Shown here one piece after another: positions 65 through 38,090 of a stretch of 64,000 bases of DNA (position 1 is the stretch's first letter; each line of letters starts with the position of its first letter). Source of the stretch: Shigella phage ESh36. The stretch lies in sequence record ON528746; one strand, 5' to 3'. Made by a program: the position numbers and the translations under genes. Below the pieces are notes generated by a model. That model worked only from the letters and a program-made list of their open reading frames with translations. It ran no database searches and was not told where the DNA came from.

Positions 65-277
65 TCATAACCATGTAACCTTTAAACAATATTCTTCTAC
101 GTGTTGTTTACGACCTTTCTTATCAATAAAGGTATATTCAACGAATGTTCCAATATAGTCTTTATCTACATCATGAGGACTATTAATTGGGCATTTAGTA
201 CGGCAAATGCGTTCCCATTGACGAATAATTTCCACTTTGTTTTTAGGATCAAACGGATGCGGGTAATGTACTTTCAT
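65..277 (-). CDS. hypothetical small protein (70 aa)
   Basis: ATG-initiated ORF in the minus-strand early block downstream of the macro-like ORF; no recognisable motif. Confidence 0.4.
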   Translation of the reverse strand: MKVHYPHPFDPKNKVEIIRQWERICRTKCPINSPHDVDKDYIGTFVEYTFIDKKGRKQHVEEYCLKVTWL

Positions 278-728
278 AATCCACCACTATTAAATCAATA
301 TCAGGAGTAAACATGTCGATTAATTTAGAAACCTTATCCCAATCGCCGCCAGCAATACCGCAACCTATGCGTGGAATGTAAATTACTGGTTTAAACAAAA
401 GGGTTTCTGCCTGTAGATTTAATTCTATCATGCAGTTTACTAAAGCACCATAATCAAGATTAGGACCCGGTTCATATTGCGTATACAGGTTATAGCATAT
501 ACCAAATCCTGTAGGATTATGTTTAAAAACAATAGACATATCGCCTAATTTATCACGAGAACCGTACTCGGTAGTGGTTTTATCTATTTCTAAAATTTTG
601 GGATAGGCTCTTGCTAATTGACCTGCTACGCCAGAGCCCATTGTGTGGAAGCAATTGCACCCGTGCGCAATAATATTACCTTGAAGAAATAGGGCGACAA
701 TATCGCCCTTGATATATTTTACAATCAT
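249..728 (-). CDS. macro-domain-like protein (possible ADP-ribose binding/hydrolase)
   Basis: 159 aa; N-terminal GDIV...NIIAHGCNC...MGSGVAGQLARA and C-terminal IPRIGCGIAGGDWDKV resemble the two conserved macro-domain blocks (GDIT...NAAN...GGGV.GAI and FPAIS.G.YG). Assignment by motif pattern only. Confidence 0.5.
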   Translation of the reverse strand: MIVKYIKGDIVALFLQGNIIAHGCNCFHTMGSGVAGQLARAYPKILEIDKTTTEYGSRDKLGDMSIVFKHNPTGFGICYNLYTQYEPGPNLDYGALVNCMIELNLQAETLLFKPVIYIPRIGCGIAGGDWDKVSKLIDMFTPDIDLIVVDYESTLPASV

Positions 729-2138: not shown

Positions 2139-2417
2139 TTATTCTTTAAATCTAATCAATTTATTCATAGACTTTGAAACTTCTGCACGGACCTCATGCA
2201 GGTTTTTAAGCTGTTCAAGACGTTGCTCATAGTAAGCAATTTCATCTTCTTCAAGACAGTCCTGTGAATCTTCTTTAAGATAACGCGCATAGTCCTGGAA
2301 AGCTTTACGGACTACTTCTTGGAAGTCATCAAGACTTTGAATTTTCTTAGGAGCAACAGATACACGACGAGGGGCAGTATAATACTCATAACCAAACCCT
2401 GCGCTTAATTGAGCCAT
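2139..2417 (-). CDS. hypothetical protein (T4 vs.3 position)
   Basis: Track ORF starts at GTG; first ATG ([10 protein letters not shown]) at 2417 gives a TAATG overlap with the upstream gene, so the start was moved. Confidence 0.45.
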
Positions 2418-2683
2418 TAATATTTTTCCTCTGGTTGGAACACAGCACGACAAGCCCACATACTGGCTTCTTTGAGTTTCGTTTTAGCAATAGTTAACTG
2501 ATCGAGGCTTTCAGCATAATTCTTCGCGAATTCACAGTCTTCACAATTATCTAGTGCTTCCCAAAATTCATCGTATAAAGCGTCAAAGATAAGTCCTAAA
2601 CGAACTTCAGCATCTTTGATAGCATTCACTTTACTGATTTTATCGTCAGTATGTGGCTTATAACCTTTAATATCTTCAATCAT
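2417..2683 (-). CDS. hypothetical protein (T4 vs.4 position)
   Basis: Track start is TTG; in-frame ATG at 2683 (MIEDIKGY) is preceded by GAGGAAG Shine-Dalgarno. Confidence 0.45.
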
Positions 2684-2897
2684 ATTTGACTTCCTCACCA
2701 GTACATAAATCATATTCAACTAAACGAATAGGTTCATGAATGCCATATCCTTGAACAGAAATTTCTGTCGTAGGATAAATTCCATCAATATCACCCATGG
2801 TCCATGCTTCATTAAATTGCTGTTCGCCTGAATTACTAAACCACTCGGCGAAAGCATTTAACACATCTTTAGAACCTTCAATAATTATCTTTGCCAT
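2676..2897 (-). CDS. hypothetical protein (73 aa)
   Basis: ATG-initiated ORF tightly packed between neighbours. Confidence 0.5.
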   Translation of the reverse strand: MAKIIIEGSKDVLNAFAEWFSNSGEQQFNEAWTMGDIDGIYPTTEISVQGYGIHEPIRLVEYDLCTGEEVKYD

Positions 2898-3259
2898 TAC
2901 AAGCTCTCAGTAAAGGTACGAGCGATAACGTCGCGCTGCTGTTCCGGAGTCAGAGAGTTAAAGCGAACTGCATAACCGGATACACGGATGGTCAGCTGCG
3001 GATATTTTTCCGGATGCTTAACTGCATCTTCCAGAGTTTCACGACGCAGAACGTTAACGTTCAGGTGCTGACCACCTTCAATTTTAACGGTAGGCTGTGA
3101 TTCAATTTCAATTTCACGGGCATGCAAACCGTAGAAAATTTCTGGGTCTACAAAAGAGTCCTCTTTAAAGGTTTTAGAAACAATAATTCGTGCTTGAATA
3201 CCATCTTCAAAATAAATAGTACCTTTATGTGTGCCTTCAAGAATTTGATATGCTTTCAT
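2897..3259 (-). CDS. autonomous glycyl-radical cofactor (GrcA/YfiD-like; T4 Y06I family)
   Basis: 120 aa; C-terminal ~60 aa [61 protein letters not shown] carries the glycyl-radical motif RVSGY and matches E. coli GrcA as I recall it. Confidence 0.9.
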
Positions 3260-3265
3260 ATAACC

Positions 3266-3595
3266 TCAATTAGAAAATAAATTTATCCAAGATTGTTCTT
3301 TAATTAAAAATGGCTCAGAATCATATGCCATTAAACTTTGTGTGATTAGTCCTTTAAAAGGCCCATCAATAAATTCCATGGTAAAATATGGAATTTTATT
3401 CATTAATCTTGCATTAGGAGCAGTACACAAAACTCTGCATCCTTTGAATACACCTTTTTGTAATTTGTATTGCTTAGGATAAAATTCGCTCAAGACGTTG
3501 TTATTTGCCAAAATTTCAAAATGATTCACCAATTTATTTTTAATAGTTTTTGGTGAAAAATAAAGATATTCGAAAAGTTGCGTGTCTGTCATCAT
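3266..3595 (-). CDS. hypothetical protein (T4 vs.7 position)
   Basis: Start moved to the internal ATG (MMTDTQ) that forms an ATGA overlap with the upstream stop; the track's longer start would overlap the upstream gene by 55 nt. Confidence 0.45.
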   Translation of the reverse strand: MMTDTQLFEYLYFSPKTIKNKLVNHFEILANNNVLSEFYPKQYKLQKGVFKGCRVLCTAPNARLMNKIPYFTMEFIDGPFKGLITQSLMAYDSEPFLIKEQSWINLFSN

Positions 3596-4098
3596 TGCAT
3601 TCCAATCACAAAAAATTGAGGACGAGTAATACCGCCAATGCAGCATTTACTATTGCAGCAGTGTTGCACAGTTTCAATATGAATATCATAAATTTTATCC
3701 ATATCAGGAGATTTAACAGGCTCATCGATTATATACAAAATCCGCGAAAGCGATAAACCTCTGAACTTGCTACCTCTATTACCAACAAAACTACGGATAG
3801 AATCGGTAAATAAGCGGAATCGAATATCATCGCTAGAATAACGAGAAAATTCTTTTTTAATGTGGCCCGCAGAAATTTTAGCGTAAGCTGAAGTATTAGA
3901 AAGAACAATAACTGTTCCACCATTATACAGCCAATTAGCAGCAAAGTTAGTCACAGCAGTTGATTTACCTGATTGACGTCCACCATCTAAACGAAGTGTA
4001 CAATATTCTTTAAATAAATGTGACGAATAAGGTACATAAAATCCACTATTACAAATTTCTTCTACTCTAGCATCAGAATGGTGTGTAAAAGCATTCAT
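3592..4098 (-). CDS. small P-loop NTPase with C-terminal Cys cluster
   Basis: 168 aa; Walker A GGRQSGKST, Walker B-like ILYIIDEP, C-terminal HCCNSKCC. Confidence 0.55.
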   Translation of the reverse strand: MNAFTHHSDARVEEICNSGFYVPYSSHLFKEYCTLRLDGGRQSGKSTAVTNFAANWLYNGGTVIVLSNTSAYAKISAGHIKKEFSRYSSDDIRFRLFTDSIRSFVGNRGSKFRGLSLSRILYIIDEPVKSPDMDKIYDIHIETVQHCCNSKCCIGGITRPQFFVIGMQ

Positions 4099-4286
4099 CA
4101 GGATAGATAAGGACCAGTTAAAAATGTTCTCATTTTATTCTCTCTAAATTTGGGCCATTCCATGGCACATGAATTGTCCATTTCTGTATTTACCCATTAC
4201 CGCACTTGGGCTCGACCTTATTACAGGTTGGCGGGAATCCCTCATAGAATCATGAGGTCCAGCTTGTTCCCATATTTCTTATTTGC

Positions 4287-4760
4287 TTATTTGAATGATT
4301 TGACGTACTGAATAGAGCCTTTGCTATTCACGAAAGCGATTTTACCATTTTTGTTATACATGGTAGCAGTACGCTGATAACCATAAGTTTGTTTACCAGA
4401 TTGATAACCAACTAATGCGAAATTATCTTCACCCATTTTATTCTGCTTCGCGCGGATACGTTCATGACCATGTGCCATAAGAACCTTAGCGTCGCCAGTT
4501 GCAATGGATCTACGAGTTTTTTCATCTTCAACTGTATTAACAAAGTCGTCAAATGAATCAAATTTAGCGTGAGATTTATTATACAGTTTTCCATCTACTG
4601 CATAATTATATCCCTGTACATCCATCTCAACTTCTGTACCATCATCCAATACAGCAGTGATTTTTTGACCTTTTTTAAATTTCAAAAGATCAGTAAAAGA
4701 TTCAGCGATAATTTGAGAATTAATAGCTGCTTCAGTGATAAATTCTTGATATGTTTTCAT
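4287..4760 (-). CDS. internal-protein-like head protein with capsid targeting sequence
   Basis: 157 aa; N-terminus MKTYQEFITEA is the T4 IP capsid-targeting leader (consensus MKTYQEFIAEA) with a downstream IAE prohead-protease-type site; mature part basic. Confidence 0.6.
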   Translation of the reverse strand: MKTYQEFITEAAINSQIIAESFTDLLKFKKGQKITAVLDDGTEVEMDVQGYNYAVDGKLYNKSHAKFDSFDDFVNTVEDEKTRRSIATGDAKVLMAHGHERIRAKQNKMGEDNFALVGYQSGKQTYGYQRTATMYNKNGKIAFVNSKGSIQYVKSFK

Positions 4761-4769
4761 GTGTTTCCT

Positions 4770-5186
4770 TTAAATGTAAATAGTTTTACCGTAGTATTTA
4801 TACCAGTGTGGCTTCATTAAAATTTTTTCATCGAGTCGTTGTTGACTCAACTTAATAGCTGATTTGCATGGATTATAATCATTTTTCCATTCTGCTGAAA
4901 TATCGCTGATGTCAGGAACTTCAGTATCTTTTATACTGAACCCACGTTTTAAGCATTCCGTTATAATGTCTGATTGACGCTTTCGCAAAAATTCTAACTT
5001 ATCGTAAAAGAACGTAACATGACCAGAACCTAAAATAAACTCGGAAGATATTTTAAAATCTTTAACCCGTTTACCATTTGCCACATGTTTACGAACTATA
5101 CCAAAAACACGTGGCAATTCACGGTATTCTGCGATTAAATGTTGATCAGCAAGTTCAGATACTAAAGTCAAATTAATACGAGTCAT
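4770..5186 (-). CDS. denV: endonuclease V (pyrimidine-dimer DNA glycosylase)
   Basis: 138 aa, [17 protein letters not shown]...WYKYYGK matches T4 DenV in sequence and length. Confidence 0.9.

Positions 5187-34952: not shown

Positions 34953-38090
<3,138 letters not shown>

Follow-up and report, generated by a model that had tools for sequence, protein, structure and literature searches.

The window analyzed here is a 64,000-nucleotide stretch of Shigella phage ESh36 (sequence record ON528746), and this report concerns a minus-strand open reading frame (ORF) of 168 codons within it, together with a conserved element upstream of that frame. The ORF is an ortholog of the T4 early gene vs.8 (T4p119), which is known but uncharacterised. 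Based on homology at the sequence level, we conclude that its product is a putative stand-alone, truncated paralog of the ATPase core of the large terminase subunit. The ORF runs from an ATG at 4098-4096 to a stop codon at 3594-3592 on the minus strand and contains the motifs GGRQSGKST, ILYIIDEP, and HCCNSKCC, exactly as given in a preliminary description of this DNA. Its main features are as follows:

3592-4098, minus strand: vs.8 ortholog, 168 amino acids, lacking the first 12 residues of the family (ORF list, PHROG 1488, vs.8 annotations of T4 and JS10, family alignments)
3961-3984, minus strand: Walker A motif GGRQSGKS, residues 39-46, with the P-loop arginine R41 (invariant; aligned to gp17 161-SRQLGKT-167)
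3757-3762, minus strand: R113-G114, 12 residues before the Walker B D125, a candidate trans-acting arginine finger (invariant; aligned to the RG of gp17)
3718-3741, minus strand: Walker B strand ILYIIDEP, residues 120-127, with a catalytic-type Glu126 (E126 and P127 invariant, D125 nearly so)
3640-3663, minus strand: HCCNSKCC, residues 146-153, a Cys-rich lineage-specific loop (unconserved beyond close relatives; predicted local distance difference test score, pLDDT, below 50)
3592-3618, minus strand: C-terminal strand P-x-FFVIGMQ and end of the protein (F162, G166, and Q168 invariant; modelled strand at residues 161-165)

Homologs of vs.8 are present in about 1000 T4-like phage genomes. A tblastn search with the ORF retrieved 1010 phage records at 38-100% identity, with at least 80% of the length covered in 1007 of them. 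The ORF matches PHROG 1488 ('unknown function') with an E-value of 1e-71, and the gene is named vs.8 in phages JS10, RB32, and RB51. This spread, the PHROG match, and the invariance of the motifs together indicate that the vs.8 ORF is no chance feature. In 35 of 35 T4-like loci from IMG/VR, vs.8 is flanked by denV (or an internal-virion-protein, ip, gene) on one side and by vs.7/vs.5...regB on the other. The protein diverges rapidly: identity between genera is 33-46% for Vs.8 compared to 55-80% for denV, e, and vs.1, a pattern typical of accessory, host-facing genes.

More distant relatives are likewise small. A hidden Markov model search of 1.84 billion cluster representatives (E-values up to 1e-3) yielded 56 relatives, all between 66 and 260 amino acids and none of them a full-length terminase or helicase. 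Members P0061 and P0069 carry an extra ~100 residues, which are unexplained and have no Pfam match. BFVD contains many models of similar size and fold (145-180 amino acids) from T4-like phages of Aeromonas, Vibrio, Acinetobacter, and Proteus, as well as matches from the jumbo phages EL, PhiPA3, and phiRSL1; all of these BFVD matches are uncharacterised. Such small P-loop phage proteins (BFVD, PHROG 2586) share the size and predicted fold of Vs.8, with Foldseek E-values of 1e-6 to 1e-3, but their relatedness in sequence is weak and some of them, unlike Vs.8, lack the Walker A lysine and the Walker B Asp-Glu pair.

Structure prediction gave a RecA-type alpha/beta P-loop fold. The AlphaFold2 model of the 168-residue form, built from a 23-sequence alignment, has a pLDDT of 82.0 and a predicted template modelling score (pTM) of 0.82; that of a 179-residue relative (P0004) reaches 82.6 and 0.83, respectively. 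Two helices precede five beta strands that alternate with helices, with strand 1 (residues 34-37) leading into the P-loop, the Walker B strand at 120-125, and the last strand at 161-165. The preliminary description had proposed a small P-loop NTPase, a proposal that an inconsistent predicted fold would have overturned; no such mismatch was seen. Membership in the additional strand, catalytic E (ASCE) division is indicated by a Walker A motif of the form GxxxxGK[ST] (G39-GRQS-G44-K45-S46), invariant in the core family, and by a hydrophobic Walker B strand followed by Asp and Glu (ILYII-D125-E126), in which E126 is invariant and D125 is at least 90% conserved. Nearly all of the listed fold matches are RecA1 domains of superfamily 2 and superfamily 1 (SF2/SF1) helicases, terminase or packaging ATPase domains, or Rad51; the RecA1 matches include DDX1 (9.9), Pol-theta helicase (9.7), Mfd (9.4), RIG-I (9.4), and XPB (9.3). 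Foldseek against the PDB gave weak matches in the same direction, to SLFN11, the helicase DSH9, P74-26 TerL, and RecD.

Conservation centers on the predicted active site. Across relatives down to 35% identity, D38, G39-K45, R102, R113, G114, E126, and P127 are invariant in the family alignments and D125 is nearly so; A48, F52, W56, K135, Y137, F162, G166, and Q168 are also invariant or nearly invariant in the core family.

The closest detectable homology outside the family is to the large terminase subunit. Residues 34-138 match PHROG 2 (terminase large subunit) with an E-value of 3.8e-6, and hhalign of the family profile against the window's own gp17 alone (36258-38090) gave an E-value of 5.5e-4. 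Against 12 diverse PF03237 terminases, hhalign returned a probability of 95.9% and an E-value of 5.3e-9 over 101 columns, with the Walker A, RG, and Walker B motifs all lined up: GRQSGKS falls on SRQLGKT of gp17, and F-R113-G-LSLSRILYIIDEP of Vs.8 is aligned with the RG-bearing stretch of gp17. Sub-threshold matches to Terminase_6N were obtained for 11 of 26 family members. A P-loop arginine is common to the terminases of T4, Sf6, P74-26, lambda, and phi29 (Xu et al. 2017, PMC5727402), and the position equivalent to R113 holds the trans-acting arginine finger in P74-26 TerL, with an arginine also present in T4 (PMC5727402). Two features are thus hallmarks of terminases rather than helicases: the arginine in the P-loop and the one that follows helix 2 and precedes the Walker B strand.

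Vs.8 thus has homology to a terminase ATPase core, including the P-loop and RG arginines; the coupling motif, lid, and nuclease domain of a terminase of 400-700 residues are absent. Compared to the 610 residues of gp17, Vs.8 has ~180 and lacks the N-terminal region with the adenine-binding motif. Beyond the fifth strand, gp17 carries TTT, its coupling motif, and then the lid subdomain and nuclease domain, whereas Vs.8 reads G-M-Q and reaches its C-terminus: the protein stops at residue 168 (180 in relatives), right after this strand, with an invariant F..G.Q-COOH. From the model, we infer that the C-terminal strand may occupy the position of helicase motif III or the terminase coupling-motif strand. 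Packaging-gene location and late expression are also lacking, the gene lying in the denV-regB slot in every one of the 35 loci and being expressed early. In omics data, T4 vs.8 is classed as early RNA and early protein (PMC9697503 supplement), in keeping with the preliminary assignment of the ORF to an early region.

The resemblance to helicases is limited to the fold. In place of the two tandem RecA domains and motifs I-VI of an SF2 helicase, Vs.8 has one domain; compared to the RecA1 domains of SF2/SF1 helicases (DEAD-box, RIG-I, XPB, RecD), it has no RecA2, inter-domain cleft, Q-motif, or Ia and Ib signatures, and its P-loop arginine and RG are terminase-like. No helicase Pfam model was significant over the 26 members, the DEAD model matching one of the 26 with an E-value of 0.077.

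The family start codon lies 12 codons upstream of the 168-codon ORF (MRTFLTGPYLSL). Family members begin M-[KR]-x-[FYL]-L-T-x-x-Y-L-x-L-M-x-A, with five positions at least 90% conserved in relatives down to 35% identity. The T4 annotation of vs.8 (NC_000866 64253-64912, 219 amino acids) very probably starts 40 codons too early: it reads through the conserved non-coding element described below, and a start near 64792 gives a protein of 179 residues. The same start-site artefact is found in homologs annotated with 194-246 residues (P0001, P0008, P0010, and P0038). The longest of these, P0038 (246 amino acids), was considered as a domain fusion and rejected as such, because its extra length comes from a wrongly called start and translation of the upstream element, as in the 219-residue T4 annotation.

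Functional labels on the gene also vary. GenBank pipelines have assigned vs.8 the names 'large terminase subunit', 'terminase family protein', and 'DNA packaging protein'. In BW-1, slur11, O157 typing phage 13, and ValerieMcCarty02, orthologs of vs.8 or vs.7 are labelled 'endoribonuclease', a name apparently copied from the neighboring regB; neither the sequence nor the predicted fold gave any support for it.

Taken together, the explanation that we consider probable for the family is that Vs.8 is a minimal terminase-type ASCE ATPase, early and fast-evolving. The natural protein would be a single RecA-type P-loop domain of ~180 residues, with K45/S46 and D125 holding ATP-Mg and E126 serving in its hydrolysis. 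As in terminase and other ring ATPases, Vs.8 subunits may assemble into a homo-oligomer whose active sites are each completed by R113 from the adjacent subunit; R41 would act in cis and R113 in trans across the interface. Lacking a lid and a coupling motif, Vs.8 would not translocate DNA as terminases do; it more likely works as an ATP-driven switch or clamp on a nucleic acid or protein partner. Our best guess for its role is the remodelling of nucleic acids or proteins during host takeover or counter-defence. An anti-defence factor was among the options in the preliminary description; PADLOC returned only weak, generic P-loop matches (PtuA, 0.0039; HerA, 0.022), and the sole hint from gene context is vs.4 (Acb2), a few genes downstream.

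Several observations weigh against this explanation. No Pfam model reached its threshold: Terminase_6N scored 14.2 bits against a cut-off of 22 and AAA_14 scored 16.4 against 27, and the AAA_30 match was likewise below cut-off. NCBIfam gave no meaningful match, and searches of PDB sequences with the single sequence and with the profile found nothing significant. The hhalign coverage excludes the N-terminal helices and the C-terminal strand, and this strand was not aligned with the coupling-motif strand of terminases. A distant subgroup (P0065, P0067, P0068, P0072, and P0080) has GH in place of GK and lacks the Asp-Glu pair while retaining the P-loop arginine and overall layout; judged by sequence, these are probably non-catalytic relatives, so catalysis would be dispensable in at least some of the family. 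A literature search found no paper on vs.8 itself. Finally, the view of vs.8 as an accessory gene draws in part on a CRISPRi-ART screen of T4 that scored it as 'Not Fit' (score 0.37, p 0.38, 3 guides; PMC11879866 supplement). The guides map to T4 64887-64932, that is, to the annotated start inside the upstream element (PMC11879866 supplement), ~100 nucleotides upstream of the real ribosome-binding site, the conserved start being near 64792. The vs.8 guides of this published genome-wide knock-down screen were thus directed to a non-coding element instead of the real ribosome-binding site, and the 'Not Fit' call says little about loss of the Vs.8 protein.

An ATPase is not the only role that a terminase-like domain of this kind could play. 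Vs.8 may instead be a non-motor mimic of the terminase ATPase domain that binds proteins recognizing TerL, with nucleotide serving mainly as a conformational switch; its possible partners would be the small terminase gp16, the portal, or Avs-type host sensors of large terminases. Avs proteins are known to sense terminases. Such a mimic would account for homology to the TerL ATPase core with every part needed for translocation missing, for the distant subgroup that lost the catalytic lysine and Asp-Glu yet kept the fold and P-loop arginine, and for early expression and fast evolution in a gene string that also holds the anti-defence gene vs.4 (Acb2, PF24729). However, PADLOC and other searches show no link to any defence system. 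In the core family, the Walker A lysine, Walker B Asp-Glu, and RG arginine are fully or almost fully invariant, which favors catalysis over mimicry and makes the mimic less likely; on balance we regard it as unlikely. Less credible still is a small kinase-like enzyme acting on a nucleotide or small molecule, or a metal-dependent regulator using the Cys cluster, as raised in the preliminary description. In its favor are the small size of the protein, its P-loop, and the presence of five Cys/His in a stretch of 8 residues. Pfam Toxin_19 also matches the Cys pattern weakly, but this match is below threshold and looks compositional, and was rejected. Vs.8 differs from P-loop kinases, which combine a kinase-GTPase fold with a LID segment and have no catalytic Glu behind Walker B. 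The absence of any P-loop kinase among the listed fold matches, together with a conserved Asp-Glu that is an ASCE signature, leaves the kinase option unsupported, and the homolog that can be detected is the ATPase core of the large terminase. The suggested metal-binding site is not supported either: HCCNSKCC is confined to relatives at the Tequatrovirus level, other genera having WPAMLG, HCSSFK, ICTAT, or YLSTGW at this position, and the Cys-rich loop (residues 150-157) is modelled with a pLDDT below 50. Metal-ligand Cys or His residues are not conserved across the family, and the Cys cluster is a lineage-specific loop outside the conserved machinery.

A separate question concerns the copy in the window, where the family start codon opens a different frame:

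4098-4133, minus strand: mini-ORF MRTFLTGPYLS*, 11 codons, with the family start codon at 4133-4131 (alignment with pSs-1, conserved N-terminus)

This copy may be damaged or misread, such that the 168-residue ORF is not the natural product; we judge the chances of this to be evenly balanced. It concerns the local copy only and is compatible with a minimal terminase-type ATPase as the explanation for the family. The CC run could be a sequencing error in a homopolymer, in which case the normal protein of 180 residues would be made. Alternatively, a genuine frameshift would mean that vs.8 is decaying or that re-initiation gives a truncated protein. When aligned with the DNA of pSs-1, the window reads CTATCC-TGATG against CTATCCCTGATG, a 1-nucleotide gap that leaves CC at 4101-4102 where relatives have CCC. 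Among 648 phage records holding the 75-nucleotide stretch, the exact CC variant occurs in three (ESh16, ESh34, and CJY920), one of which, the GenBank record of ESh16, is flagged UNVERIFIED; in IMG/VR, the CC form had no matches and the CCC form four. The residues lost include the conserved L5, T6, Y9, and L12, and in the model of P0004 residues 6-29 form one long, confident N-terminal helix, so the frameshift removes the start of this helix. On the other side, the CC variant also appears in a record from another source (CJY920), and the rest of the frame shows no damage, sharing 94% identity with full-length relatives. Moreover, the TGA of the mini-ORF (4100-4098) overlaps the ATG of the 168-codon ORF (4098-4096) as UGAUG, a stop-start overlap that would allow coupled re-initiation. 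Unless the deletion is a sequencing error, the 168-residue product could be obtained only in this way.

Upstream of vs.8, the 188 nucleotides that separate the ip gene from the ORF (4099-4286) are more conserved at the DNA level than the flanking genes. They contain the following feature:

4150-4264, minus strand: candidate structured RNA in the vs.8 5' leader, within a conserved stretch at ~4134-4276 (conservation, covariance model, pair changes)

A core of 32-40 nucleotides (CCUGUAAUAAGGUCGAGCCCAAGUGCGGUAA) is 90-97% identical in T4-like phages of Klebsiella and Salmonella, compared to ~40% for Vs.8 itself. Inspection by eye revealed several compensatory changes, namely CCC...GGG to CUGG...CCAG, ACCU...AGGU to GCCU...AGGC, ACAU...AUGU to ACAA...UUGU, and GCC...GGC to GGC...GCC, as well as one base pair deleted on both strands of the element (CUCA...UGAG to CUA...UAG). 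We built a covariance model from 11 sequences and a hand-drawn structure of seven helices. In the 64-kb window, this model has exactly one match (4150-4264, minus strand, 74.7 bits), and in T4 it again has one, at 64817-64931, inside the annotated N-terminal extension of vs.8. Of the 35 related loci (L009-L043), where the element lies shortly before position 4001, the model matched 33, that is, all but the two most distant. Two of the 33 carry tandem copies (L020:3704-3806 and 3839-3946; L030:3708-3810 and 3843-3950), and L040 has an element at 3730-3859 together with a degenerate second copy.

Pairing statistics agree with the proposed structure. In the alignment fitted to the model, 96.5% of cells are paired compared to 89.1% in shuffles, and slid controls reach only 16-42%. 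Double-sided changes occur in 9 of 22 pairs, a count reached by none of 500 shuffles, the counts being made on the model-fitted alignment and many of the double changes being inherited within clades. From a MAFFT alignment, plain RNAalifold recovered only 10 pairs, and minimum free energy folds of single sequences disagree with one another; the structure thus rests on manual comparative analysis and realignment with the covariance model. Thermodynamic stability is ordinary (z = -0.42).

The element resembles no family that we searched. There was no Rfam match (E-values up to 1; gathering thresholds), ARAGORN detected no tRNA or tmRNA in it, and a literature search on RNA motifs of the Tevenvirinae found nothing relevant. 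Scans for sigma-70 promoters and intrinsic terminators on the minus strand of 4099-4290 were empty, which makes a cassette of the PeSL kind unlikely, PeSL being a promoter/terminator cassette. A coding element was rejected because the sole shared frame spans 15-80 codons with non-conserved starts and stops and is broken by a 1-nucleotide indel in two lineages. Host mimicry was also rejected, as no match was found in 5,426 E. coli genomes or in GTDB species genomes; in IMG/VR, the element occurs solely in T4-like contigs, almost all of which had already been found via vs.8. Overall, T4-like phages probably have in this element of 115-150 nucleotides a new structured RNA or, failing that, a conserved cis-element. 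The CRISPRi-ART result suggests that dCas13d binding to it carries no fitness cost under laboratory conditions.

The end of the element usually lies ~15-20 nucleotides before the Shine-Dalgarno sequence of vs.8. In four loci (L024, L026, L027, and L029), an ip-like gene (MKTYKEFI...) is inserted between the two, and the element is therefore not strictly a translational operator of vs.8. We think it quite improbable that vs.8 and the upstream folded RNA constitute one functional unit. If they did, either the RNA would be a new ligand- or protein-responsive leader controlling the terminase-derived mini-ATPase, or it might be a partner or substrate of the ATPase in a small ribonucleoprotein. The latter form loosely recalls phi29 gp16 and its pRNA, an analogy only, the element showing no similarity to pRNA (no Rfam match). 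Such a unit, if real, could act in early host takeover or counter-defence.

These results bear on a T4 early gene of unassigned function, conserved across roughly a thousand sequenced phages, whose protein is made early. What they add is the assignment to a minimal terminase-type ATPase core with a predicted intact active site and a candidate arginine finger, a corrected start for vs.8, and an adjacent candidate RNA element; both the gene and the RNA are unannotated or misannotated even in the T4 reference genome. The proposed ATPase mechanism is testable and suggests the mutants K45A, E126Q, and R113A, with gp16, gp17, nucleic acids, and terminase-sensing defence systems as partners to be considered.

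The surrounding DNA is that of a Tequatrovirus. Positions 3000-4800 of the window match Shigella phages ESh16 and ESh34 at 100% identity and many T4-like phages at 95-97%. On the minus strand, the gene order is e, denV, the internal-virion-protein gene, the vs.8 ORF, vs.7, vs.6, vs.5, vs.4, vs.3, regB, vs.1, and vs. The gene directly downstream of vs.8 is:

3266-3595, minus strand: vs.7 ortholog, 109 amino acids, PHROG 2049, 'unknown function' (ORF list, PHROG match)

Its ATG overlaps the vs.8 stop codon (ATGA), making translational coupling of the two genes probable; it has no Pfam match. An obligatory partnership between Vs.7 and Vs.8 was considered and rejected because vs.7, which follows vs.8 in about two thirds of the related loci, is undetectable in about one third.

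On the upstream side, a 157-residue internal-virion-protein gene (4287-4760, minus strand; PHROG 3155, Pfam DUF7412) separates denV from the vs.8 leader. T4 has denV directly upstream of vs.8, with ipII and ipIII on the far side of denV. The interval between denV and vs.8 is a variable slot for ip genes.

Other members of the gene string have recognizable relatives. The vs.6 ortholog (2897-3259, minus strand) is a GrcA-like autonomous glycyl-radical protein (Pfam Gly_radical, E-value 2e-18). A few genes downstream of vs.8, the vs.4 ortholog (2417-2683, minus strand) matches Acb2_Tad1_hairpin (PF24729, E-value 1e-19), a family of nucleotide sponges that counter CBASS/Thoeris. At the downstream end of the early gene string, a 159-residue ORF (249-728, minus strand) occupies the position of T4 tk.4, which is annotated 'phosphatase, A1pp motif'; by eye, the translation of the ORF in the window is macro-domain-like.

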